Positions 1-60,375 of a stretch of DNA of 64,000 nt are shown piece after piece. Numbering within the stretch: position 1 is the first letter of the stretch; each line of letters starts with the position of its first letter. The notes under the pieces are model-generated. The model saw nothing but the letters and a program-made list of their open reading frames with translations. It had not been told where the DNA came from and did not search any database. Both the position numbers and the translations under genes were made by a program. Origin of the DNA: Candidatus Auribacterota bacterium (lineage in GTDB: Bacteria > Auribacterota > JAFGBW01 > JAFGJP01); contig JAGLFH010000010.1 in assembly GCA_023144635.1 (NCBI GenBank), forward strand, positions 161 through 64,160. The letters are read 5' to 3'.

Positions 1-3000
1 AAAGCTGCTGCTGTTTTATTGCCATATCATCTTTAAGTTGTTTTTCTCTTTTCTGATATTCCTTTAATTTAGCCTCATTCTTCTCGCTCATGGCCTCCAG
101 CTGCTTTTGCTTTGCATCTATCTGTGCTTCCTTGGACTTCATCTCCTGTTCAAAAATAAGGCTCTGCTGTGAATCCTGGTTCTTTATACTGCTTAAGGTT
201 TCCATAAGAGAATTTATTTCTTTCTCTTTATCTGTTAAAGATTTCTCATTCTGAAGTATCAGATGACTAAGTTCGTCTGTCTTTTTCTTTTCCTCTTGAA
301 GGTCTTTTTGAAGTTTTTTGCTTTTAACACTTATATCCTGACGAAGCTTTGCTATGTTTTTCTCTTTATCCTGAATTTCTTTTTGCTTTTCATTTAACTT
401 ATCTCTCGTATCCTGCAGCATGTCCTGCATCTCTTTACGCTTTTCTTCTTCTTTAGACTGTATTTCCAAAAGATCAGAATTATATACCTTAAGTTTTTCC
501 TTTAAACGTGCCTTTACTTCATCTTCCTTCTGAGATTCTATTTGTTTGGTGAGTTGGTCTATCTCTTTCCTGACAGCATCCTTTTCCTTTTCTGACTGAA
601 CCCTGCGCTTTTCATCTTTAGCCTGTGTCTTTTTCATTTCATTTTGAAGTGTGCTTATGTCAGTTATCTTTAGCTCAAGCTCCTTGTTCTTTGAATTAAG
701 CTCCTCTTCAAGCTTTTTCCTTAAGCCTTCCTGGTGAAGACGCTTTTGCTTTTCAGCCTCAAGACGGGATTTTTCCTGCTTAATAAGTTCCTTTAGTTCC
801 GTCTCTTTATTTGCTTGTTCCTTTTCCCTTAAATTAAGCTTTTTCTGCATCATCGCTATTTTTAGCTGATTCTCTTTTTCAAGCTGCTCCTGCTTTTCCT
901 TCTCCTTATCATTCATCTTTTTAAGATCAGCTATCTTTTGCTTGTATAAAGCAAGCTCCTTCTGGTGTTTTTTCTCAAGCTCTCTTTCCTTTTTCTTTTT
1001 CTTAGGGGATATTTTTTTATCTTTTTTCTTTTCAACGACTTTTATCGTTTCCTTGTCTTTTTCAACGAGTATTTTTGATGCAGCAGGTTTTCTCATGCTG
1101 AGTAATTCAACGTTTTTTAGATTTAAAGCAGAGGAATATATAGTTATATCGTCGATTTTACCCAGGAAAAAATCTTCTTTTTGAGATCCTGAGGCTCCTA
1201 TTACAAGAGGTGAGGTCTTAGATGAAGAAAAAATAGTGCTTTTTTTTATAACTAAATCAGAAATAAGCTTTCCATTTTTATAAAGGAATATCTTTTTGTT
1301 TTTGCCGTCTATAACAAGAACAACATGAGACCATGAATCTTTTTTTAGTAATTCAGGATCTTTAACAAGCTGAATGTTTTTACCATCTCCTAATCCTCCA
1401 TAAAGGTAACCGTTATCAACACCGATCAAATAAAACTCAAGAGGATTCTGCAGGCTTTGTTTAATTATAAGCTTTTGTTTTTCTGAAAAGTCTAAAGGAT
1501 TTATCCATAAACTTAAAGTTAGTACAGAAAATTGTCTTTGATATGCAGTGTCATTGATAGTGATGCTGTTTTGAAGAGACGATCCATTAAAAGCTGAACC
1601 GGTAATTCCTTTAGAAAAATTTCTTAAATTTTTTCTAAAGAAAGTTCCATTTTGATTACAGCCTGAGGAGTCCTTTATATTATATGGAGTATCCGTATCA
1701 AAATCAAAATGTCCTATAACGCTGTATCCATCAGGAAGCTGCATTATACTTTTGTCTGAAATATGTATATATGATGGATTAAATGAAGAAATTCCCTTTA
1801 TATCATCATTGTTTAATGCGGATTGATAAATGCGTACTTCATCGATAAGCCCATTAAAAAAATCGCCTTGTCCTTCTTTGCCTGCACCTATTACAATGTT
1901 TGCATTGAATGTCTCAATTCTATTTTTTGCTCTTTCAGTTTTTTTATGTTCTCCATCTACAAAAAGATGAAGTTTGGATTTGTCTGAGTCAAAAACAAAG
2001 GCAACATGATACCACTTATTAAGTTTAAGCGGGGTATCAGTCTGTATAAGAGAATAAACCTCTCCATCTCCGATCCCGCCATAAATATGACCATTGTCTT
2101 CACCTAAAAAGAAAAAGCCAAGAGGATTTTTAGAACTCATTTTTGATACTATTTTCCTCTTTTCACCAAAAGTTTTTATATTTATAAATGCACTTATCGT
2201 AAGAGGCTGGTAATTGACAGTTCGAGAAGAGGGTTCCATGACAATGGCACCTGATGTATTAGAAAAGTCTAAACATGTACGGTAATAACCATGATTCCAG
2301 TTTGATTTACCCATGTTTTTGAAAGTACATTTTGGAGAAGACCTGTTTGCGTCAAATACAATGTCACCCTTTGCTTCATCAAAAGTAAAATAATGAACCA
2401 GCTTTTGATCCTCTTTATAATTGATAATTTTTGCAGCAGATGTGCGATTCATATCTTTTTTGTAATAATTTTGTATAAGATTTAATGGTAAAGCTTTTCT
2501 ATACATTCTTAATTCATCTATATTTCCATTTAAATGATCTGCTTTACCTTGATAGTCAGCACCTATATATAAATCTGTGTCCTCTCCACCAATGGCAAGA
2601 TCACACTTCTTCTCTCCATCAAGTTTGCCGTTTACATATACTTTCATAGACTTTTTGTCACGGTCATAAGTAAAAGCAATATGAGACCATTCATCTTTTT
2701 TTAAAACGGTTTTTCCCTTAACGAACAAATAATCTTTCCCGTCTCCGATACCAGCAGAAACCTGTTTTTTTTCAAGTTGAAGAAGATAAAAGCTTCTTTT
2801 GTCAAGCATACTTCTTTTAGAGACTATTTTTTGTCTTACCGGAAAAGATAATGGCTTAAGCCAGAGCATTACGGTGAATGATTTTGAGAAAGTAAGGTAT
2901 TTAGATGAACTTACGGATGCTCCTCCTTTTGGGTGTATTGAGGAGCCGAACATTCCTTCAGGCCAGCTTTTCAGTAAAATATCTTTTCTGTAAAGAGTAT

Positions 3001-3772: not shown

Positions 3773-5049
3773 AGAACTTTGAGCCGGTGATTATTTATAA
3801 TCTTTTTCCTCGTTTGGTTGGGAATATTGAAAAATGGGGTGATCATATTAACCGTATTGCGAAAATGGGGTTTAACTGGATATATATTAATCCTTTTCAC
3901 TATCCTGGATTTTCTGGAAGTCTTTATGCCCCAAAAGATTATTATGCTTTTAATCCTATATTCATCGAAGATGATAAAGATGGATTTAAGCAATTAAGTG
4001 AATTTAATGAAAAATGCATGAAAAAGGGTATAAAAGTAATGATGGATCTCGTAATAAATCATTCTGCATCAGACTGTGTTCTTGTTAAAAAACATCCCAC
4101 TTGGTATAAGAGGGAAAAAAATGGAGACCTGATGCATCCTTTTTGCGTAGATCCTGCCGATACGACAAAAAAGACTGTTTGGGGTGATCTTGCTGAAATC
4201 GATAATGATCCTGCGTCTCCCAACAAAAATAAATTATGGAAATACTGGCTTGATCTGATAAAAAAATATAAAAGCATTGGGTTTAAAGGTTTTCGTGCTG
4301 ATGCGGCATATAAAGTACCAACAGAACTTTGGGAATTCCTTATAAAAAAAACAAAGAGCAATGATCCCGAAATACTTTTTTTTGCAGAAACGCTTGGTGC
4401 TGAAGAATCAGATCTTGAAAATGTGGTTAGAGCTGGTTTTGATTGTGTGACAAACAGTTCAAAATGGTGGGATTTTAAAGAAGACTGGTGTATAGATCAG
4501 TACAATACTTATCGCTTACATACGCCTTCAATAAGTTTTCCTGAAACACATGATACTTCCAGGCTTTACAAGGACCTGAATGAGAATATCAATGGTCAAA
4601 AAATGTGGTATGCTTTCAGTGCATTTTTTTCTTCTGGAGTAATGATGCCTCTAGGATATGAATGGGGAGCATTGAAAAGAGTAGATGTTGTGCATACCAT
4701 GCCGGAAGATATGGAAGATAAAAGAATTGATATATCAGCTTTTATCAAAAAGGTAAATATTATTAAGAAAAAGTATTCTGTTTTTGGATATGATTCAGAG
4801 ATTAGAGTTTTAAGCTCTCCAGAAGACAACATTTTTGTTATGCAAAAGGTTTCTAAAAAAACAGATGATTGTATACTGATAATAATAAATAAAGATATTA
4901 GTAAAGATAATTATTTGGATAGTGACATATTGAAAAAACTTGACGGCAAAAAACAATATCTAAAAGAAGTCTTTCCTTTAAAAAGATCAGCTTCAAAATA
5001 TGAGCCAAGATTTGAGCCAGGAGAAGTAAGGGTGTTAATTAAGGGCTAG
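3769..5049 (+). CDS. Alpha-amylase family (GH13-like) glycoside hydrolase or transferase
   Basis: GH13 conserved-region-like motifs DLVINHSA, GFRADAAYKVP, FFAETLG, PETHDT. Overlaps the NUDIX gene stop by 4 nt (ATGA). Confidence 0.7.
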   Translation: MKNFEPVIIYNLFPRLVGNIEKWGDHINRIAKMGFNWIYINPFHYPGFSGSLYAPKDYYAFNPIFIEDDKDGFKQLSEFNEKCMKKGIKVMMDLVINHSASDCVLVKKHPTWYKREKNGDLMHPFCVDPADTTKKTVWGDLAEIDNDPASPNKNKLWKYWLDLIKKYKSIGFKGFRADAAYKVPTELWEFLIKKTKSNDPEILFFAETLGAEESDLENVVRAGFDCVTNSSKWWDFKEDWCIDQYNTYRLHTPSISFPETHDTSRLYKDLNENINGQKMWYAFSAFFSSGVMMPLGYEWGALKRVDVVHTMPEDMEDKRIDISAFIKKVNIIKKKYSVFGYDSEIRVLSSPEDNIFVMQKVSKKTDDCILIIINKDISKDNYLDSDILKKLDGKKQYLKEVFPLKRSASKYEPRFEPGEVRVLIKG

Positions 5050-14053: not shown

Positions 14054-16078
14054 ATGAAAAGAAACGCTGTAAAAATAATTGTTGTTGTTTTTGTTCTGGC
14101 TTATCTTTTGATCTTTGATGACCTTTATGCTTTGGAATTTAAAGCTGAAAAGGTAAATTATGATATTAATACGTCAGAAACTGTGTGTGAGGAAAATGTA
14201 GTCGTTCAGCATGAAGGCCAGTATCTTGTGTCAGACAAAGCAAAGTTAAATGTTAATGAAAATTCTTCTTATGCAGAGGGCAGTGTTCTTGTTGTAACAG
14301 ATGAAGAGACATATCTTATAGATAATATTGATTTCAATTTTAAAACAGAAGAAGGAACCGGATCGAATGGCACTTCTTACAAGTATCCATGGGTTATAAC
14401 AGGATCTTCAGTAGAAAAAAAAGGCAACGATATGATAATAAAAGATGCTGTTATTAGGCCTTCTACTGCATCTGGATCTTTAATAACTTTTAAAGCCAAG
14501 ACGGCAATAATAGAGGATAATAAATTCCTTATTATTAAAAGCTTAACTTATTATTTAGGTAAGGTCCCTGTTTTTTGGTTTCCTTATATGAAGAAAAAAA
14601 TAACTGATGATAGAACAGAACTTAGAATAACTCCGGGTAAGAACAGCCTGCATGGGTATTATGTAAAAACTTCATACCGGTATTGGTTTACACCTGATAC
14701 TTACGGACGCCTTTACCTTGATTTTATGGAAGAAAGAGGGACAGGTTACGGGGCAGAGGTCGGAATAGAATCACTGGAAACAAAGGGTCTTTTAACAGGA
14801 TATTATATAGAGGATGAAAATTTTGTCCCTATAAGGTCACAAGATATACCTACCGGTAAAGACGAACGTTATTGTGCTAATTTAAAACTAAACCAAAAAC
14901 TTCCCACTCAATGGTCTTTAATATTTCAAGGTAATAAGCAAAGCGACCTTGACTTTTATGATGATTTTTTTTATGACGATTTTAGAAATTCAATACAGAG
15001 ACAGAATTATTTAAGACTTATAAAGAGTAAGAACAATACTAACTTTTCACTGCTTCTTGAAAAGAGGTTTAACGATTTTTTTACAGTTATAGAAAAAGAA
15101 CCTGAAATAAAATATGATTATAACAATTATTTTCTGGAAGAATATAATGTGTTCCATACTATATCTTTGGAAGCATCACGTTTAAATTTAAAATATGCTG
15201 ATGATTCAAATGAAGACCTCAAGAATTCACGTATATACCTAAATAATGAATTGTCGTACCCTATGAAATTTTTCGGGTGGCTTAATCTTGAACCGACTTT
15301 TACTATGGAAAACATTTATTATGATAATGCTGTTGATGACAGCGGTATATTAAGAAATGTATATCAGGGAGACCTTGATCTTTTTATAAAACTTTCAAAA
15401 GTGATGTATCCTGAAAAAAGAATAATGGGGTATGACAGGTTCAGGCATGTTTTTGAGCCTCATATAACTTATTCATACAGTCCTGAGCCTAATTATATGA
15501 ATGAAGAGATAATAAGTATAGACGGCCTTGACGGACGATCAAAAGTTAACACTATAGGTCTATCGTTGTGGAATAGTTTGATGGCAAAAAAAGGTAAAGA
15601 TGAAGAGGTAAAAAGCCTTATAACTGGAAATTTTAATATTTCTTATTCACCTGATACAAGTGAGTTTTCAGATATAGGTTATAAATGGGATGTTACTTTG
15701 ATAGAAAACTTAAGCCTTTATTTAAAGGGAGCTATTGATAAAGATAATTTTAACATGCTTAAAGCTGATGTTGACCTTGCATATTATTGTGATGATTTTT
15801 GGGGATTGGCAATGGGGTGGATATATAGAGATGAGAGTAACTCTCTTATTTCTCCTGAAATATTCATAAATATTTATGACAGTACTTATATTAGAGGCTT
15901 AGTGCGATATGATATTGAGTCTGAGAAAACCGAATACTCTAAAGTATCTCTGGTAAAACAGATAAAAGGTATGAATATAGCTCTTCAGTACAGTAACAGG
16001 CATACTCGCGATGAAGAATCTTATATGATAGTGTTTTCACTTTCTGATTATCCAAATACAAGCGTAGAATTTCAATAA
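14054..16078 (+). CDS. lptD: LPS-assembly outer-membrane protein LptD/OstA-like
   Basis: Signal peptide, an OstA-like N-terminal segment, then ~550 aa of aromatic-rich, beta-strand-like sequence ending in an aromatic residue (VEFQ). Embedded among LPS sugar genes. Confidence 0.6.
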   Translation: MKRNAVKIIVVVFVLAYLLIFDDLYALEFKAEKVNYDINTSETVCEENVVVQHEGQYLVSDKAKLNVNENSSYAEGSVLVVTDEETYLIDNIDFNFKTEEGTGSNGTSYKYPWVITGSSVEKKGNDMIIKDAVIRPSTASGSLITFKAKTAIIEDNKFLIIKSLTYYLGKVPVFWFPYMKKKITDDRTELRITPGKNSLHGYYVKTSYRYWFTPDTYGRLYLDFMEERGTGYGAEVGIESLETKGLLTGYYIEDENFVPIRSQDIPTGKDERYCANLKLNQKLPTQWSLIFQGNKQSDLDFYDDFFYDDFRNSIQRQNYLRLIKSKNNTNFSLLLEKRFNDFFTVIEKEPEIKYDYNNYFLEEYNVFHTISLEASRLNLKYADDSNEDLKNSRIYLNNELSYPMKFFGWLNLEPTFTMENIYYDNAVDDSGILRNVYQGDLDLFIKLSKVMYPEKRIMGYDRFRHVFEPHITYSYSPEPNYMNEEIISIDGLDGRSKVNTIGLSLWNSLMAKKGKDEEVKSLITGNFNISYSPDTSEFSDIGYKWDVTLIENLSLYLKGAIDKDNFNMLKADVDLAYYCDDFWGLAMGWIYRDESNSLISPEIFINIYDSTYIRGLVRYDIESEKTEYSKVSLVKQIKGMNIALQYSNRHTRDEESYMIVFSLSDYPNTSVEFQ

Positions 16079-17059: not shown

Positions 17060-17632
17060 ATGCTGGAGCGAATTGTTTTTAAAAACAGAAGCTACAGAAG
17101 ATTTCATGAAAAAGAGAAAATAAGTTCCAACTTACTTAAAGATCTTATAAATTTAGCACGCCTTACACCATCTACCGCAAATCTCCAGCCTTTAAAATAT
17201 ATCATATCTTTTGAGAGCAAAACAAATGCTTTGATCTTTCCCTGTTTAAGATGGGCCGGATATTTAAAAGACTGGGAAGGCCCGGAAGATGGGCAAAGAC
17301 CTTCAGCATATATAGTAATATTAAATGACAAAAATATTTGTGAAAATACTACAATCGATCAGGGAATAGCTGCCCAATCAATACTTCTTGGAGCAGTAGA
17401 GGCTGAGCTTGGTGGCTGCATTATTGCCAGCATTGATAGAGATCTTCTTAGAAAAGAGCTTAAAATAGATGATCAATATCAGATCTTACTTGTACTAGCG
17501 CTTGGAAAGCCAAGAGAGCGTGTTATGTTAGAGAATATTAAAGATGGTGATGTCCGTTATTGGCGCGACAAAAATGCTGTTCATCATGTCCCTAAAAGGC
17601 CTTTAGACGAGATCCTTGTTGATATAGGGTAA
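17060..17632 (+). CDS. Nitroreductase-family protein
   Basis: RRSYRRF-type start (KNRSYRRFHEK), TPSTANLQP motif, ~190 aa. Confidence 0.75.
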   Translation: MLERIVFKNRSYRRFHEKEKISSNLLKDLINLARLTPSTANLQPLKYIISFESKTNALIFPCLRWAGYLKDWEGPEDGQRPSAYIVILNDKNICENTTIDQGIAAQSILLGAVEAELGGCIIASIDRDLLRKELKIDDQYQILLVLALGKPRERVMLENIKDGDVRYWRDKNAVHHVPKRPLDEILVDIG

Positions 17633-17800
17633 ATAACTTGCTTGTAGATTTTAGATTTACAAGGGTGGTTTGCGAACCGCCCCTATTGCAAATCCGCCAA
17701 TCTTTTTGGAGGACATACGTTTTCCGCTGTGTAAATCCACCTAAAAAGGCTTTTAAAGTATCAAATACATCTTTATCTCATATTTTCTGGATTCTGTTCC

Positions 17801-17829
17801 TTGACTTAAAAGCTTCTATGTTGTAAAAT
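17801..17829 (+). promoter_or_regulatory. Sigma70-type promoter for the COG1579/rnhA region
   Basis: TTGACT (17801-17806), 17-nt spacer, TAAAAT (17824-17829), about 50 nt upstream of the ATG at 17880. Confidence 0.55.
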
Positions 17830-17879
17830 GCATTTCTTTTGTGTCAGAATAAAGCAATAAATAAAGGAAAATACTTCAA

Positions 17880-18587
17880 ATGGTTAATAGATATAAAACA
17901 TTGTTGGACGTTCAGGAAATAGATATAAATCTTATACGGCTTCAAAAAGAAATAAAAGCGATCCCTGCTGAAATAGCAGAAATGAAAAAAACTAATGCTG
18001 ATGAAAAGAGAGCAGTTGAAAAAGTCAGTGAAAAGATTAAGAGTCTTATTGTTAAAAAGGGAAATCTGGAAACAGAAATAGAGACAAAAAAAAATCATTC
18101 CGACAAATTAAAAGGCCAACTCTTGCTTGTTAAGAAAAATGATGAATATAAAGCTCTTTCAAAAGAAATTGCTTATGATCTTAAGAACATCACAAAAATG
18201 GAAGATGAGACATTAGAGATAATGGAATCAATAGAAAAAGAAGATGAAGTCTTAAAGAGTAAGAAAGTAATCCTTAAAAATAAAGATGAAGAAATAAAGG
18301 GAAAAGAGATTCAGTCAAAGAAACAGCTTCACGATCTAAATGAACAGCTGGAAAAGTTAAAGATGCAAAAAGAAGTACTCAAAAAAGAAATATCTCCTTC
18401 TCTTCTAAAGTTATATATAAGAATCTTTCAAAATAAAAAAGATTTTGCTGTTGTCGAGGTCGTTGACAATAAAGTGTGCGGAGGTTGCAGAATGTCTTTA
18501 ACAGCAAATGTCAGGAATGAAGCAAGGAAAGATAATATTGTCCAATGTGACAATTGCTCACGTATACTATACGTAGAAATGCCCTAA
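17880..18587 (+). CDS. COG1579-type coiled-coil protein with a C-terminal C4 zinc ribbon
   Basis: Long K/E coiled coil followed by CGGCRMSL...CDNCSRILY. Confidence 0.8.
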   Translation: MVNRYKTLLDVQEIDINLIRLQKEIKAIPAEIAEMKKTNADEKRAVEKVSEKIKSLIVKKGNLETEIETKKNHSDKLKGQLLLVKKNDEYKALSKEIAYDLKNITKMEDETLEIMESIEKEDEVLKSKKVILKNKDEEIKGKEIQSKKQLHDLNEQLEKLKMQKEVLKKEISPSLLKLYIRIFQNKKDFAVVEVVDNKVCGGCRMSLTANVRNEARKDNIVQCDNCSRILYVEMP

Positions 18588-18588
18588 T

Positions 18589-18849
18589 CTGTATGTTGCA
18601 TAAAAACAGACGAAAGGGAGTCATAACATTTTGCAGCAAAGAAATCAAAAGTAATACCGTTCAAAAAATTAAATACAAGTTGTCATCATGCTCTTTTATA
18701 AGGTAATAGAATGTTTTTTCGTCTGTTTTTACCGGAGGCGTACGGATTGCATCACATCTGCTACGTTGTCAGGTATTCGCAGTATTATTTATACAGCTTC
18801 ACACCTGACGCCTCGCATTCGTGTTACACTTCGTACGTGAAACATACAG
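18589..18849 (+). ncRNA. Unclassified structured RNA-like element, copy A (paralog of 19412-19674)
   Basis: Closing helix CUGUAUGUU (18589-97) / AACAUACAG (18841-49). Long 5' hairpin ACAGACGAAAGGG (18606-18) / UUUUUUCGUCUGU (18714-26), which includes 3 G-U pairs valid only on the + strand. 3' domain helices GAGGC (18735-39) / GCCUC (18810-14) and GUCAGGU (18768-74) / ACCUGAC (18803-09). Loop blocks are conserved with copy B. Confidence 0.6.
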
Positions 18850-18975
18850 GATACAGCTAAAAATATAATTAAAAGTTATTTTAAAGCTTTAGCTACTTCA
18901 TAAAAACATACGTGAAATATATCGGGTTAACATCAACTAAAGAAATTATAAATAATTCTTAAAAATATTTATTTT

Positions 18976-19419
18976 ATGTCCAAAGAAGAAAAACTCATTA
19001 TTTATACAGACGGAGCATGCAGCGGAAATCCCGGTCATTCAGGTGTAGGTATAGTCCTTTGTGACGAATCTGGGAGTATAATCAAAAAATATTACAGGTA
19101 TATAGGTCAAACTACTAATAATATTGCAGAATACATGGCATTTGTTTTTGCTTTACAAGAATCATTGTTCAATAACGTACGTCACGTTACTGTTTATTCA
19201 GACAGTGAACTTATGGTAAGACAAATGAATGGAATATATAAAGTAAAAAATCAAAATATCCTCTTGTTATATCAAATAGCGGAAAACCTCAAAAAACATT
19301 TTAATTATTTCAAGATTGAATATATTGAAAGAGAAAAAAATAAAGAGGCTGACAGGCTTGCCCGAAAAGGAGCCAAGCTAAAAGGTAAGAATATGAGTAA
19401 GAATGAAGACGAGTCTTAA
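18976..19419 (+). CDS. rnhA: Ribonuclease HI
   Basis: IYTDGACSGNPG start, NNIAEY and SDSELMV motifs, EADRLA near the C-terminus (DEDD-type RNase H fold), 147 aa. Confidence 0.85.
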   Translation: MSKEEKLIIYTDGACSGNPGHSGVGIVLCDESGSIIKKYYRYIGQTTNNIAEYMAFVFALQESLFNNVRHVTVYSDSELMVRQMNGIYKVKNQNILLLYQIAENLKKHFNYFKIEYIEREKNKEADRLARKGAKLKGKNMSKNEDES

Positions 19420-19674
19420 TCTTCATAAACACAGCCGAAACAAGTTAATATATTTTACTGCAATAGAAGTAATATCAAGATAAAGTTTAATTAATAAATA
19501 CAAGTTTATATAAGTGCTTTTATAATGTATTGGGATATTTAATCGGCTGTGCTTACTAAAGCGAGCCAATTACAGAGCATCTGATGCGTTATCAAATACT
19601 TGCAGTATAAGAATACAGCAGCATATTTGAAGCCTTTCATCTACACTGCACTTGACTCGTGAAACATTTAGACT
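19412..19674 (+). ncRNA. Unclassified structured RNA-like element, copy B (paralog of 18589-18849)
   Basis: Closing helix AGUCUUAAU (19412-20, overlaps the rnhA stop) / AUUUAGACU (19666-74). 5' hairpin CACAGCCGA (19430-38) / UCGGCUGUG (19543-51). 3' helix UCAAAUA (19592-98) / UAUUUGA (19624-30). Shares the loop blocks AAGUAAUAYC, AAAUACAAGUU, GCU(C)UUUUAUAA, CAUCUG..CGUU, GCAGUAU..AUACAGC and CGUGAAACAU with copy A. Confidence 0.6.
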
Positions 19675-19875
19675 AAAATAAAAGCAGTTATAAGCTATAA
19701 GTAGTAAGCTGTAAGAAAAAAACTAAAATAAAAAAACAACACCCTCAACCAAATAACAAATCCTCCCTGTCTCCCAAGCAGAAATCGATGACCTAATAAC
19801 AAGCACTTACATTAACGTGTGCGAGAAGTGATTCAAAAAGGCCTTCACACTTATAAAAATAATATGTTTTAAATG

Positions 19876-20058
19876 CTTGACATAAAACGCACATCTTATC
19901 TAACAAAAATTTTTCTAACTTACCTGAAATCAATAAATATTTGCGGCAAATTGTCAATAAATAAGACACAAAAGTGTAAACGAATACATGTTGTTATTAT
20001 TAATATAATAATAAAAAATAAGCATATATTATACATATTAGGTAAAATATGTTATAAT
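19876..20058 (+). promoter_or_regulatory. Conserved upstream regulatory module plus extended -10 promoter (copy 1 of 2)
   Basis: GCTTGACA...TTTCTAACTTACCTGAAATCAATAAATATTTG...AAATTGTCAAT aligns with 55011-55100. TGTTATAAT extended -10 (TATAAT at 20053-20058) aligns with 55187-55195. Confidence 0.6.
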
Positions 20059-20085
20059 ATATAATTAACATTTTAATATTTGATA

Positions 20086-20152
20086 AATGGGCAATTCAGT
20101 ATTTAACTGGAGCGCAAAGCCACGGGGCAATATGTCAGCCGGGCTGCACATT
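20086..20152 (+). promoter_or_regulatory. c-di-GMP-I (GEMM-I) riboswitch aptamer, copy 1
   Basis: AAUGGGCAAUUCAGUAUUUAACUGGAGCGCAAAGCCACGGGGCAAUAUGUCAGCCGGGCUGCACAUU. It has the GGCAA-hairpin, the CGCAAAGCC junction and the ACGGG..CAGCCGGG..GC second hairpin, as I recall them from GEMM-I (for example Vc2 GGGCAAACC...GACGCAAAGCC). Confidence 0.8.
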
Positions 20153-20174
20153 AAAAACGCAGTTCGGTTTTTTT
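20139..20174 (+). terminator. Intrinsic terminator forming the riboswitch expression platform
   Basis: CCGGGCUGC (20139-47) pairs with GCAGUUCGG (20159-67), 9 bp including 2 G-U, followed by a U7 run (20168-74). The 5' arm is shared with the aptamer 3' strands. Confidence 0.8.
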
Positions 20175-20201
20175 ATAATCTAAAAATAGGTGAGGTTAAT
20201 T

Positions 20202-21056
20202 ATGAAAAAAATATTTGTTTTATTTTTTATGGTATTGGTTTTACTTAGTACTTCTCAAATTTGCTTAGCTCAAGTCAATAATATTAGTATTGATGAAATT
20301 ATTAATGAGATACCTGAGGTCTGGTGGGAAGGTGGATGGAATAAAACATTAGAACTTAATCAGTTTATTAATAATAATCTACAAAATAAACAGCAATGCG
20401 CAAAAGCACAATATTGGATAGCTTGTAATCATTATGCAAATAGAGATTATAAGCGAGCCATAGATGAATTTAACATAGTCTTAGAACAATATTCAGGTTC
20501 TTGGGGTGAATGCGTTAAAGCACAGTTTGAAATAGCTCAAATTTATTTATACAAACTGAAAGAATATGAAAAGGCTTTAACTGCTTATAATAAAGTTCTT
20601 TCTAATTATCCTGACCAAAAAAATCTTCCAGCACAGTCACAAAGGATGATTGCATATACCTATAACAGAATGAAGAATAATGAAAAAGCATATGATGAAT
20701 ATAAAAAAGTATGGGAAAACTATTCTGAATCAAAACTTGAAGTAACAAAAGCATATTGGGAAACAGCAGAAATGATCTCAAGTGGATGCTATAAACAAGA
20801 TTTAACAGAAGAAGAGAAAAAGCAAAAGCTTGAAGGCTCACTTTCTTTATACAAAAAAGCATATATCTATTGTCCTGTAGATGAAGTTGAGGTTATGGAA
20901 TGGATCATTGATTCTGTTGTTAGAACATTTAAATTTTTAGATGGAAATTCAAAAAGAGCAAATGCTTTTATTAATTTTCAAATACAAGATAAAAGCAATA
21001 ATGATTCCTTATTATCAGAAGAATCAGAGATATATGATCCATTAAAAGATTTTTAA
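20202..21056 (+). CDS. Secreted TPR-like repeat protein
   Basis: Signal peptide MKKIFVLFFMVLVLLSTSQICLAQ and TPR-like helical repeats (YKRAIDEFNIVLEQY, YEKALTAYNKVLSNYP). The ATG at 20202 follows an AGGTGAGG RBS. Confidence 0.65.
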   Translation: MKKIFVLFFMVLVLLSTSQICLAQVNNISIDEIINEIPEVWWEGGWNKTLELNQFINNNLQNKQQCAKAQYWIACNHYANRDYKRAIDEFNIVLEQYSGSWGECVKAQFEIAQIYLYKLKEYEKALTAYNKVLSNYPDQKNLPAQSQRMIAYTYNRMKNNEKAYDEYKKVWENYSESKLEVTKAYWETAEMISSGCYKQDLTEEEKKQKLEGSLSLYKKAYIYCPVDEVEVMEWIIDSVVRTFKFLDGNSKRANAFINFQIQDKSNNDSLLSEESEIYDPLKDF

Positions 21057-29435: not shown

Positions 29436-29520
29436 GCCAGAGTGGCGGAATCGGCATACGCGAAGGTCTCAAAAACCTTTGCTCCTTGCGGGCGTGTGGG
29501 TTCGAGTCCCACCTCTGGCA
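29436..29520 (+). tRNA. tRNA-Leu (anticodon CAA)
   Basis: Hand-folded cloverleaf: acceptor GCCAGAG/CUCUGGC, anticodon arm AAGGU-CUCAAAA-ACCUU, long variable arm, T arm GUGGG-UUCGAGU-CCCAC, discriminator A. 85 nt, no encoded CCA. Confidence 0.9.
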
Positions 29521-48509: not shown

Positions 48510-48740
48510 AATTAAAGTTATTACACCTCTTAATAAGAAACCAAAGATGCAGACCTTAGAGTTGTAAACTAACTTTATTTCCTGCCTTCATAGCAGAAAC
48601 CATCCTCCTCATGTCTCTGTGAACTCTGTGGCAAATAGGCTTTTTTTATATTTGATATGTATTCCTTTTCTCTTTACACGGGCGCAGCACGCGGCGCCCC
48701 TACATACGTTTTACTTTTAATTAATATTTTTATCCCATTT

Positions 48741-48840
48741 GTGTGTCTTTGTGGCTAGAAAACAGTTATAAGTCATAAGCTGTAAGTTGTAAGCAGGAAA
48801 CCAAAAACCTCTTTTTAAATTCGTGTCCCTTCGTGTTCTT
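48741..48840 (+). repeat. Composite intergenic repeat (GTGGCTAG / CAGYTATAAGTCRTAAGCWGTAAGTT / ACCTCTTTT / TCGTGTCCCTTCGTGTTCTT), copy 1
   Basis: Aligns with 54836-54920 and 60246-60330. A shorter TAAG module occurs at 19685-19715 and in inverted orientation at 62735-62766. Confidence 0.75.
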
Positions 48841-48845
48841 ATTTA

Positions 48846-54835: not shown

Positions 54836-54962
54836 AAAAGCAGCTATAAGTCATAAGCAGTAAGTTATAAAAAAAACAGAACCTCTTTTATTTTTTTTGT
54901 GTTATTTCGTGTTCTTAGTGGCTAGATATATAATGATCGCGCGTTTGCGCTCATTTAATTTC
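54836..54962 (+). repeat. Composite intergenic repeat, copy 2; left direct repeat bracketing the riboswitch-adhesin module, with a copy of the UDG gene 3' end
   Basis: Aligns over ~125 nt with 60246-60375. The segment TTCGTGTTCTTAGTGGCTAGATATATAATGATCGCGCGTT(T/A)GCGCTCATTTAATTT is nearly identical in both copies. Confidence 0.75.
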
Positions 54963-55010: not shown

Positions 55011-55195
55011 GCTTGACAAAACCAATGCAATTAACTTAACACTAAATCTTTCTAACTCACATGAAATCAGTAAATGTTTGTAGTAAATTGTCAATTATAT
55101 AGACATAAATATGTAATAATATATCTTGCTACATCTACAATATAAAGAAAAAAGCTTCGTATGCATTACGCATATTGAATAAAATGTGTTATAAT
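55011..55195 (+). promoter_or_regulatory. Conserved upstream regulatory module plus extended -10 promoter (copy 2 of 2)
   Basis: GCTTGACA...TTTCTAACTCACATGAAATCAGTAAATGTTTG...AAATTGTCAAT and TGTGTTATAAT (TATAAT at 55190-55195) align with 19876-20058. Confidence 0.6.
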
Positions 55196-55225
55196 ATATA
55201 AAAATTAACATTATAATAGATGATA

Positions 55226-55290
55226 AATGGGCAACTCAGTATTTAACTGAGGCGCAAAGCCACGGGGCAATATGTCAGCCGGGCTGCAAA
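55226..55290 (+). promoter_or_regulatory. c-di-GMP-I (GEMM-I) riboswitch aptamer, copy 2
   Basis: AAUGGGCAACUCAGUAUUUAACUGAGGCGCAAAGCCACGGGGCAAUAUGUCAGCCGGGCUGC. Identical to copy 1 except for compensatory changes in the first hairpin (UUCAGU/ACUGGA becomes CUCAGU/ACUGAG). Confidence 0.8.
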
Positions 55291-55313
55291 TAAAAAGCAG
55301 TTCGGTTTTTTTT
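55279..55313 (+). terminator. Intrinsic terminator forming the riboswitch expression platform, copy 2
   Basis: CCGGGCUGC (55279-87) / GCAGUUCGG (55297-305) followed by U8 (55306-13). Confidence 0.8.
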
Positions 55314-60033: not shown

Positions 60034-60245
60034 GAAAGCACCCGAAGTCAGCATAATGTGGAAAGGGGATTCAACTCTTGTCCTGAGCAAAGTCGAAGGA
60101 GCGGCTAATAAAATAGCTTTTAGTTCTTAGTAAAACAACCACTCTGTGCTTTTCTCTGTGTACTCCGTGTCCTCTGTGGCTAGATTTATTTTCTGTGTCT
60201 TTTCTGTTTTTTTTATCCGTGTTAATCTGTGTGTATCTGTGGCAA

Positions 60246-60375
60246 GAAAACAGCTATAAGTCGTAAGCTGTAAGTTATAAGCAAGAAATCAAAAACCTCT
60301 TTTTTTCTTCGTGTCCCTTCGTGTTCTTAGTGGCTAGATATATAATGATCGCGCGTTAGCGCTCATTTAATTTTT
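60246..60375 (+). repeat. Composite intergenic repeat, copy 3; right direct repeat overlapping the true 3' end of the UDG gene
   Basis: Aligns with 54836-54962 and partly with 48741-48840. Positions 60356-60375 are the last codons (IKEKLNER*) of the minus-strand UDG gene. Confidence 0.75.

Follow-up and report, generated by a model that had tools for sequence, protein, structure and literature searches.

The window (the whole 64,000-nt stretch of DNA analysed) carries a COG1579 / CT398-type zinc-ribbon gene followed on the same strand by rnhA, which encodes RNase HI. Two paralogous elements of ~260 nt, A and B, bracket rnhA (Table 1). The first-pass annotation of this locus had described them as copies of one structured RNA, and we confirmed that they are diverged paralogs with a common architecture. 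It had also placed them correctly, with A starting 1–2 nt past the COG1579 stop and B overlapping the rnhA stop; the location stands, and the exact boundaries were corrected to those in Table 1. A and B are ~60% identical, keep their shared base pairs and loop blocks, and contain only short chance ORFs. When the 64-kb window was searched with a model built from the pair (which scores its own two copies at 301 and 288 bits) and with a family HMM, no further full copy was found besides A and B. A short stretch between A and rnhA, in which TTCATAAAAACA (a 5'-end motif) is fused to TACGTGAAA (a 3'-end motif), is probably the remnant of an internally deleted third copy, as this motif has one match at ≤3 mismatches vs. 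0.01 expected from shuffles. Promoters and terminators in 17600–20300 were no more frequent than in shuffled sequence.

Table 1. Features of the COG1579–rnhA locus, in window coordinates.
Feature	Position	Strand	Basis or remark
COG1579 / CT398-type zinc-ribbon gene	17880..18587	+	ORF; Pfam PF24481 + PF02591 on homologues
Target-site duplication of element A (4 bp, CTAA), 5' copy	18584..18587	+	
Element A, MITE copy, 269 nt	18588..18856	+	boundaries from family inverted repeats
Element A, 5' inverted repeat TCTGTATGTTGCA	18588-18600	+	
Element A, 5' hairpin	18601-18731	+	
Element A, 3' domain	18738-18838	+	
Element A, 3' inverted repeat TGAAACATACAGG	18838-18850	+	
Element A, 6-nt tandem duplication ATACAG	18851-18856	+	
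Target-site duplication of element A (CTAA), 3' copy	18857..18860	+	
Probable relic of a third copy, internally deleted	18897..18917	+	TTCATAAAAACA fused to TACGTGAAA
rnhA, RNase HI, 147 aa	18976..19419	+	Pfam PF00075/PF13456 on homologues
Element B, MITE copy, 259 nt	19414..19672	+	boundaries from family inverted repeats; 5' boundary 19414-19420, uncertain by ~6 nt
Element B, 5' inverted repeat TCTTAATCTTCA	19414-19425	+	contains the present rnhA stop (TAA 19417-19419)
Element B, 5' hairpin	19426-19555	+	
Element B, 3' domain	19561-19660	+	
Element B, 3' inverted repeat TGAAACATTTAGA	19660-19672	+	
CTAA directly 3' of element B, where the 3' copy of a 4-bp duplication is expected	19673..19676	+	

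What had been read as the closing helix of each RNA is the pair of terminal inverted repeats. The pairing itself is real: CUGUAUGUU/AACAUACAG in A is paired at 9/9 positions, and AGUCUUAAU/AUUUAGACU in B at 8/9, with one U-U. The block CGUGAAACAU, previously listed as unpaired, belongs to the terminal inverted repeat. Homologous copies found elsewhere fall into three subfamilies, all with sharp ends formed by inverted repeats of 13–16 nt, and with target-site duplications of three types, 4 bp ANNT, 4 bp CTAR-like and 5 bp TNNNA. By subfamily, perfect duplications flank 21/51 and 5/19 copies (4 bp each) and 13/28 copies (5 bp), where permuted-flank controls gave 5.2, 0.6 and 0.75. Related copies with CC..GG-type ends obey the same 4-bp rule, being flanked by CTAG, CTAA, CTGA or GTAA. 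Element A has CTAA on both flanks, and the COG1579 stop (TAA, 18585–18587) lies inside the 5' duplication; COG1579 in relatives likewise keeps the C-terminal '...P stop'. For element B, the 3' CTAA alone is intact, and its 5' counterpart at 19410–19413 reads CGAG. The 5' boundary of B is ambiguous because relatives too end rnhA with Ser-stop.

Searches with a 23-base pattern taken from the 3' domain matched 91 stretches among species-representative genomes and 62 among metagenomes, with none in viral contigs, and the pair-built model returned 82 hits, many of them full-length. The carriers are metagenome-assembled genomes (MAGs) of Bacteroidota, Kiritimatiellota/Verrucomicrobiota/Lentisphaerota and Acidobacteriota, often with many copies each: at least 14 in the Bacteroidetes MAG D1_MAG_00037, some at contig ends, and several each in MAGs of Verrucomicrobiota, Kiritimatiellota and Victivallaceae. 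The window's own genome, which lies outside the scanned collection, shows two copies and one relic within 64 kb, and multi-copy status is shown in other genomes only. A pattern specific to A and B (AAATACAAGTT-N7-10-CTTTTATAANGTA) had no match in metagenome contigs, nor did Bacteroidales-type and Bacteroidetes-type copies among 72,556 plasmids. Family copies are 108–362 nt long and contain no ORF. No protein family within 3 kb joins the 155 motif sites, and clustering of ORFs around 82, then 155 sites returned only housekeeping genes or one locus resampled; neighbours elsewhere include sufS/sufU, Ser/Thr kinases, NAD(P)H-hydrate dehydratase, a helicase and a transporter. A full-text literature search found no description of this repeat family, which is apparently undescribed.

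The first-pass annotation had tied the elements to rnhA or COG1579 and named homologous loci lacking them as one observation that would count against its reading. Seven related loci indeed lack both A and B, with a COG1579–rnhA gap of at most ~75 nt, while homologues lie beside unrelated genes at ~150 other places. The two genes are 9 nt apart in L001, 12 nt in L008, overlapping in L009–L012 and at most ~75 nt apart in L167–L170, and the pair-built model detected no A or B at either site in any of these loci. In element-free relatives rnhA ends in GAC TAA (L007), GAC GAG TAA (L008), or ..GAG TCG TAG / GAA TCA TAA (L167, L169). Assemblies of the same species (L002–L006) carry A, and B where the contig extends that far. 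Right behind rnhA, L170 has a B-like copy that is truncated and oppositely oriented, an independent insertion at the same place. Insertion of A and B took place at the stops of COG1579 and rnhA or no more than a few bases away, in what relatives have as a compact operon. Nothing special attaches to the sandwich: rnhA is a bystander between two insertions, and the RNase H link is incidental.

Each copy in the family is an ORF-less unit with terminal inverted repeats and a 4- or 5-bp target duplication. Inverted repeats with target-site duplications at ~150 dispersed places identify a MITE (a miniature transposable element with inverted repeats), and we regard it as highly probable that A and B are diverged copies of such a non-autonomous DNA transposon, present in many genomes of uncultured Bacteroidota, PVC-group bacteria and Acidobacteriota. 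A transposase encoded elsewhere would move the elements, and given the inverted repeats and fixed-length duplications it would probably be of the DDE type. No autonomous partner with the same ends, encoding a transposase, was found in ~150 loci of up to 14.7 kb, a weak negative as MAG contigs break at repeats.

One lead to a parent, not a result, is the IS1380 family, for which we take CC...GG ends, a 4–5-bp duplication and a DDE transposase to be the defining values. Two subfamilies share with IS1380 and piggyBac-type elements their CC...GG termini and 4–5-bp duplications, and the ISEcp1 ends CCTAGATTCTACGT / CCTAAATTCCACGT resemble the family ends CCTGAATAATTCA and CCTTAATTTTGCA; in the window, the ISEcp1-like end is CCTGTATGTTTCACGT, the reverse complement of the 3' end of A. 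The likeness to ISEcp1 extends over only 6–8 bases, however, and the Bacteroidota subfamily ends in AGGGCC...GGCCCT. With the ISEcp1 reference, tblastn found no IS1380-type transposase in any fetched locus.

The interior of the elements is less easily explained. The 5' hairpin-base and 3'-domain helices exist as originally quoted, and their compensatory changes were borne out: RNAalifold on the A and B pair gave 46 shared pairs, nine of them changed on both sides. Both elements fold more stably than their shuffles, with z = -3.2 for A and -2.0 for B. In the family alignment, which was fitted to the model, 64 pairs were 87.7% paired vs. 29–41% in slid controls, and 45 pairs were changed on both sides. 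The interior consists of a variable 5' hairpin and a 3' hairpin of ~100 nt that is conserved, internal loops included; across phyla, compensatory changes preserve the interior fold. Minimal copies of 108–125 nt consist of the ends and the 3' domain only. Among the supposedly conserved unpaired blocks, CAUCUG-N3-CGUU and GCAGUAU...AUACAGC recur family-wide, although the invariance of CATCTG, CGTT, GCAGTA and ATACAGC was imposed by the search pattern; the 3'-strand motif GCCUYGCAUCUG is conserved outside that pattern. AAGUAAUAYC, AAAUACAAGUU and CUUUUAUAA, in contrast, are common to A and B only and lie in the variable tip of the 5' hairpin. The first-pass annotation had expected a MITE to show many copies without covariation; many copies were found, yet they do covary. 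Ordinary MITEs require their ends alone, and a plain MITE model does not account for a covarying interior of ~100 nt on subfamilies that differ in ends and duplication length. The 3' hairpin may be needed in cis for propagation or retention of the element.

The original case for a plus-strand fold could not be sustained. Assignment to the plus strand had been based on G-U pairs in A, and a count of G-U vs. A-C (85 vs. 26) in the model-fitted alignment agreed, but unbiased folding favours the reverse complement. This is more stable than the plus strand for A (-76.0 vs. -65.9 kcal/mol), for B (-65.9 vs. -52.1 kcal/mol), and for 21/27 family members, A and B among them.

Neither element matches a curated RNA family, as had been suspected. 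At gathering score, Rfam 15 gave nothing in the window or in 19 loci; at E≤10 only noise appeared in 18500–19800, and at E≤1 nothing fell on the elements in seven loci. COG1579 and RNase HI genes neighbour rnpB in some Actinobacteria, but RNase P RNA was rejected as a candidate, with no RNase P or other Rfam match even at E≤10. RNase P, 6S, tmRNA, SRP, HEARO and Acido-Lenti-1 all failed to match near gathering score. The elements are likewise without a match to Acido-Lenti-1 in particular (RF01687; PMC2864571).

Could the conserved 3' domain nevertheless be a functional RNA, carried as cargo on several transposon 'chassis', so that selection keeps the RNA and not the DNA ends? It might then act as a ribozyme, bind a protein, or serve as RNA partner to an RNA-dependent mobility or defence system so far unrecognised. 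Three subfamilies with different inverted repeats and duplication lengths share the same interior fold and loops, minimal copies retain this domain only, and covariation is strong, with GCCUYGCAUCUG conserved beyond the search pattern and pairs and loop blocks kept between A and B at ~60% identity. In the window's subfamily, moreover, 7/13 copies (A and B excluded) start directly behind the stop of a co-directional long ORF, and one is convergent. The thermodynamic preference for the reverse complement speaks against RNA cargo, as do the lack of a linked partner protein at 155 sites and of any Rfam relative even at E≤1. The other two subfamilies also show a weak orientation bias or none (12 vs. 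7; 1 vs. 3); an initial count of 13 vs. 2, taken as general, failed a family-resolved recount and applies to the window's subfamily only. We consider the cargo reading unlikely. At a similarly low probability, the ~100-nt 3' domain would be an unrecognised functional RNA or single-stranded-DNA module on at least three chassis in Bacteroidota, PVC and Acidobacteriota; such a module might be a ribozyme of a new kind, an RNA that recruits proteins, or the nucleic-acid component of an unknown transposition mechanism with a preference for stop-codon neighbourhoods.

It is very improbable that the elements are guide-type RNAs, either bridge (seek) RNAs of IS110/IS1111 elements or omega RNAs of TnpB/IscB acting in trans. 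Bridge RNAs, which the non-coding part of a mobile element encodes, are structured non-coding RNAs of ~180–260 nt with two stem-loops bearing internal loops, and the two-hairpin architecture here recalls them. In L013 an IS110-type DEDD transposase gene is even followed, 380 nt downstream, by one copy (421–679, minus strand). None of the other loci has such a transposase, however (1/155 sites), no recombinase or nuclease is linked across the 155 sites, and what the two copies in L013 have in common ends with the ~260-nt unit itself. Near-identical copies sit in unrelated flanks, which means that the loops, conserved rather than target-specific, cannot encode targets. Unlike bridge-RNA elements, the family has inverted repeats and 4–5-bp duplications of variable sequence, and it has no match to HEARO or another Rfam family.

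We give still less credence to attC-like single-stranded recombination sites in cassette-like arrays (COG1579-[A]-rnhA-[B]; sufS-[element]-sufU-[element]). As with attC, the elements lie right behind stops and co-directional with the gene, in gene–element–gene–element order both in the window and in L064, and are imperfect palindromes conserved in structure above sequence. The attC core consensus is RYYYAAC/GTTRRRY, which ends such as GCCTAAT...TTCAGGC loosely recall. The family nevertheless departs from this consensus, is longer and branched, and has target-site duplications; most copies are single, dispersed and beside housekeeping genes, with no integrase near any of them. In relatives rnhA follows COG1579 without a site, so there is no cassette. 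The least probable reading, in which the COG1579–rnhA operon has a cis-regulatory or non-coding RNA of its own or a local tandem duplication is decaying by chance, would explain two same-strand copies that bracket one gene and keep their fold, but this reading is already refuted by the seven empty sites and by dispersed homologues beside unrelated genes in several phyla.

For A and B as MITE copies, the closest parallels are MITE-like repeats that are transcribed together with adjacent genes: ERIC/IRU in enterobacteria and Correia (CREE/NEMIS) in Neisseria. Both kinds of repeat are ~100–300 bp long, without an ORF, and have terminal inverted repeats and a short target duplication. They insert in operon spacers or next to stops, give transcripts that fold into long hairpins, and lack a linked transposase, as here. 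They are not known to resemble the present family in sequence. Whereas ERIC and Correia repeats are each confined to one genus or family, the present elements span several phyla; their fold is branched (closing helix plus two hairpins) instead of one long hairpin, and their ~100-nt interior covaries even where ends and duplication length differ. In the window the elements would be co-transcribed with COG1579–rnhA as structured intercistronic and 3'-UTR RNA. Translation of rnhA would thereby become independent of COG1579, and mRNA processing or stability could change, an effect shown for ERIC and Correia repeats.

These results remove a false lead at the locus, as there is no RNase H-specific RNA. 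In its place is a repeat family at which MAG assemblies break in several phyla and by which operons are split at stop codons, and that carries a fold conserved far past what transposase recognition of ends demands. If this fold acts as RNA, the family would represent a mobile, structured RNA that Rfam lacks and that offers many natural variants for covariation analysis. If it acts as DNA, it would suggest a transposition mechanism in which a hairpin inside the element is read.

Elements A and B, the diverged paralogues that bracket rnhA, lie where the first-pass annotation placed them, every helix quoted there is present, and its description of both was accurate. An alignment of the two has 46 predicted pairs in common, with changes on both sides in 9, in agreement with the compensatory changes reported. 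Both are more stably folded than dinucleotide-shuffled controls (z = -3.2 for A and -2.0 for B), a covariance model built from A and B scores 301 and 288 bits on the pair, and Rfam 15 gave no match at gathering scores, with only snoRNA-type noise at E ≤ 10. The observation is thus real. Neither the pair-built model nor the family HMM found a further full copy in the 64 kb, where the two c-di-GMP-I riboswitches and the tRNA gene are the only Rfam matches at gathering scores.

Features of the window
Feature	Position	Strand	Remark
674-aa ORF	14054-16078	+	no Pfam match on record
Epimerase gene		+	between the 674-aa ORF and the nitroreductase
Nitroreductase gene	17060-17632	+	
COG1579/CT398-type zinc-ribbon gene	17880-18587	+	
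COG1579-rnhA spacer			389 nt
CTAA, 5' flank of A	18584-18587		takes in the COG1579 stop
Element A	18588-18856	+	
CTAA, 3' flank of A	18857-18860		
Fused end motifs	18897-18917		21 nt
rnhA	18976-19419	+	
Element B	19414-19672	+	
CTAA, 3' flank of B	19673-19676		
Non-coding DNA 3' of rnhA			~770 nt, ends in c-di-GMP-I riboswitch
AGCTATAAGTNGTAAGCTGTAAG repeats	19693-19737, 48764-48808, 60252-60296		
Further AGCTATAAGTNGTAAGCTGTAAG pairings	48737-48841 / 60225-60329, 54885-54961 / 60297-60373		
Duplicated leader	20002-20156, 55139-55296		
c-di-GMP-I aptamer, first	20080-20151		37.8 bits (Rfam)
c-di-GMP-I aptamer, second	55220-55291		43.9 bits (Rfam)
tRNA gene	29436-29520		85 nt, long variable arm type, 57.8 bits

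Both aptamers sit in a leader that is duplicated (94 nt at 91% identity, with 63 nt further upstream at 75%), ahead of a cluster of TPR-protein genes and a 1564-aa ORF. The copies of a second small repeat family (AGCTATAAGTNGTAAGCTGTAAG...) are 69-90% identical, the first beginning 21 nt 3' of element B.

Relatives of A and B were sought with a 23-base pattern from the ~100-nt 3' domain (CATCTG-N3-CGTT-N11-13-GCAGTA-N4-7-ATACAGC; ~1 chance match expected by our own estimate). It matched 91 stretches in species-representative genomes, 62 in JGI metagenome contigs and none in viral contigs. Carriers are MAGs labelled Bacteroidetes/Bacteroidales/Flavobacteriales/Sphingobacteriia, Kiritimatiellae, Verrucomicrobiota, Lentisphaerae/Victivallaceae and Acidobacteriota/Aminicenantes, several of them multi-copy, with some copies at contig ends. 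The pair-built model found 82 matches in carrier loci, many spanning the whole two-domain architecture. Carrier loci gave no Rfam family match at gathering scores (19 loci) or at E ≤ 1 (7 loci), and neither of two copies tested matched any of 72,556 plasmids. Elsewhere the genes next to homologues are unrelated (sufS/sufU, Ser/Thr kinases, NAD(P)H-hydrate dehydratase, helicase and transporters among them), and the 3 kb around 155 sites show no recurring protein family. A Lentisphaerae MAG locus, L064, has the window's layout (sufS, element, sufU-like gene, element), with elements at 1506-1844 and 2375-2592; the former, 339 nt long, is composite and contains another 5' inverted repeat at 1627.

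In one Bacteroidetes MAG, 14 aligned copies define a unit of ~245 nt whose ends are sharp, AGGGCYTACTGAAAAACAC...GTTTTTCAGTARGCCCT. Copies from Kiritimatiellota and Verrucomicrobiota end in CCTTAATTTTGCAC...TGCAAAATTAAGG, and those from Lentisphaerae, Bacteroidales and some Verrucomicrobiota in CCTGAATAATTCA...TGAATTATTCAGG, the type of A and B; these terminal inverted repeats are what the first-pass annotation called the "closing helix". Ends and duplication length vary among the three subfamilies, which have the 3' domain in common.

Target duplications and adjoining stop codons of long ORFs, by subfamily
Subfamily	Duplication	Perfect	Permuted-flank control	Copies with flanks	Co-directional ORF stop at 5' end	Convergent stop at 3' end
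Bacteroidetes type	4 bp (ATTT, AAAT, AATT, AAGT...)	21/51	5.2	44	12	7
Window's type	4 bp (CTAG, CTAA, CTGA, GTAA)	5/19	0.6	13 (plus A, B)	7	1
PVC type	5 bp (TATAA, TACCA, TGGTA...)	13/28	0.75	22	1	3

The CTAA duplication of A emerges when the tandemly duplicated 6 nt within its 3' end are taken into account. B has CGAG as its 5' flank, a boundary uncertain by ~6 nt because relatives likewise end rnhA with Ser-stop. Between A and rnhA, the 5'-end motif TTCATAAAAACA is fused to the 3'-end motif TACGTGAAA with the interior missing (0.01 matches expected by chance), probably what is left of a third copy after internal deletion. The elements are small and lack an ORF, carry inverted repeats and target duplications, are absent from empty sites and are dispersed in many copies; together these traits identify what appears to be a MITE family. 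The single trait missing is an autonomous partner, none being found among the loci examined, which is weak evidence since contigs of MAGs tend to end in repeats. In locus L013, one copy has 380 nt upstream of it an IS110-type DEDD transposase gene (PF01548 + PF02371; 1062-2111, minus strand), and the homology of the two L013 copies stops at the element; as this gene is unique among all loci, its proximity is probably coincidental.

The empty sites come from the loci of the closest COG1579 and rnhA homologues. The two genes are 9 nt apart in L001 (COG1579 50% identical), 12 nt in L008 (rnhA 75%; a convergent gene begins 10 nt past rnhA), 1 nt in L170 (73%), 63 nt in L169 (77%) and at most ~75 nt in L167/L168 (79%), and they overlap in L009-L012 (63%), where a convergent nitroreductase overlaps the rnhA end. 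The pair-built model had no match in any of these loci. Identical elements are present in other assemblies of the window's species. Because the gene pair is compact and element-free in relatives, A and B are insertions into a conserved operon, their link with rnhA being incidental. Just after rnhA, L170 carries a truncated B-like copy in opposite orientation (697-860, minus strand), consisting of inverted repeat and 5' hairpin base without the 3' domain; this indicates repeated insertion at the rnhA end, the same spot having been used more than once in this lineage. In L007 (rnhA 81%), the 440-nt spacer is unrelated repeat-rich sequence sharing with A only TCTGTA after the stop codon, and may retain vestiges of an orthologous insertion. 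This spacer of the closest relative (592-1031) is filled by short repeats of higher GC content (GTCGTCATT..., ...GGATCCGCC...GGAGGAAAGC), which recur in L169 after rnhA and in L013 at ~4470-4503; they are a separate palindromic repeat family. The nitroreductase is convergent and directly after rnhA in relatives (L009 3453-4049, L010 1023-1619, the contig of P0048) and in the window precedes COG1579, with which it is co-oriented; the locus underwent rearrangement in the insertion-carrying lineage.

Covariation was assessed on 27 sequences over 64 pairs in seven helices (the closing helix, two in the 5' hairpin at its base and in its upper part, four in the 3' domain), with the alignment fitted to the model. 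Pairing held in 87.7% of cells, against 29-41% with partners slid by 1-3 columns, and 45 pairs changed on both sides; no shuffle reached the observed values. Many copies without covariation had been proposed as the mark of a MITE: the copies are many and dispersed, but they do covary. The 5' hairpin tip varies in length and sequence. The 3' domain is in every copy, the smallest (108-125 nt) being inverted repeats plus this domain alone. Among the unpaired blocks called conserved, AAAUACAAGUU and CUUUUAUAA are confined to A and B; CAUCUG, CGUU and GCAGUA extend to the family, although the search pattern itself dictates that these, like UACAGC, are invariant. L034 6700-6870, found by the model only, has the compensated variant GCAGUAG...CUACGGC, and 3'-strand motifs beyond the pattern, such as GCCUYGCAUCUG, are common to the three subfamilies.

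On this model-fitted alignment, 85 G-U against 26 A-C pairs seemingly favor the plus strand, as the first-pass annotation had argued from G-U pairs. However, unbiased folding gives the reverse complement a lower energy than the forward strand for 21 of 27 full elements, A (-76.0 vs. -65.9) and B (-65.9 vs. -52.1) among them, and for 34 of the 43 3' domains in a non-redundant set; the consensus fold of this domain, from one alignment for both strands, is -41.9 in reverse vs. -30.5 forward. Read on the reverse strand, the conserved UC/CU internal loop turns into tandem G-A/A-G. The plus-strand assignment is thus not upheld; the fold may act as RNA or single-stranded DNA, from either strand. The reported start at a stop codon holds for two subfamilies, the window's and Bacteroidetes types. 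Duplications or junctions of these two hold stop-like triplets (CTAA, CTAG, CTGA, T|AG), and the placement can be explained by target preference plus selection against within-gene insertion.

Two genes of the operon have each received, at the stop codon, a transposable unit with target duplication and a conserved fold. A DDE-type transposase would mobilize this unit in trans: the CC...GG ends and 4-5-bp duplications resemble the IS1380/piggyBac group, and ISEcp1, fetched for comparison, has loosely similar ends; no IS1380-type transposase gene was found in the fetched loci. Co-transcribed with COG1579-rnhA, the elements would form structured intercistronic and 3'-UTR RNA, separating genes tightly packed (0-12 nt) in four relatives. 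The 3' domain would be required in cis for propagation or retention. The main alternative to this mechanism as a whole, in which the 3' domain serves as functional RNA cargo in its own right, seems to us unlikely. Readings as an RNA specific to the RNase HI operon, a bridge or guide RNA, or an attC-like site are contradicted by the features tested, the first by a dispersed family absent from the relatives' compact operon.

ERIC and Correia are MITE-type repeats that are co-transcribed and fold. The present family, described neither in the full-text literature searched nor in Rfam, is best filed as a repeat like them, apparently undescribed. Its one unusual property is the structural conservation of the interior across phyla, which merits experimental study.
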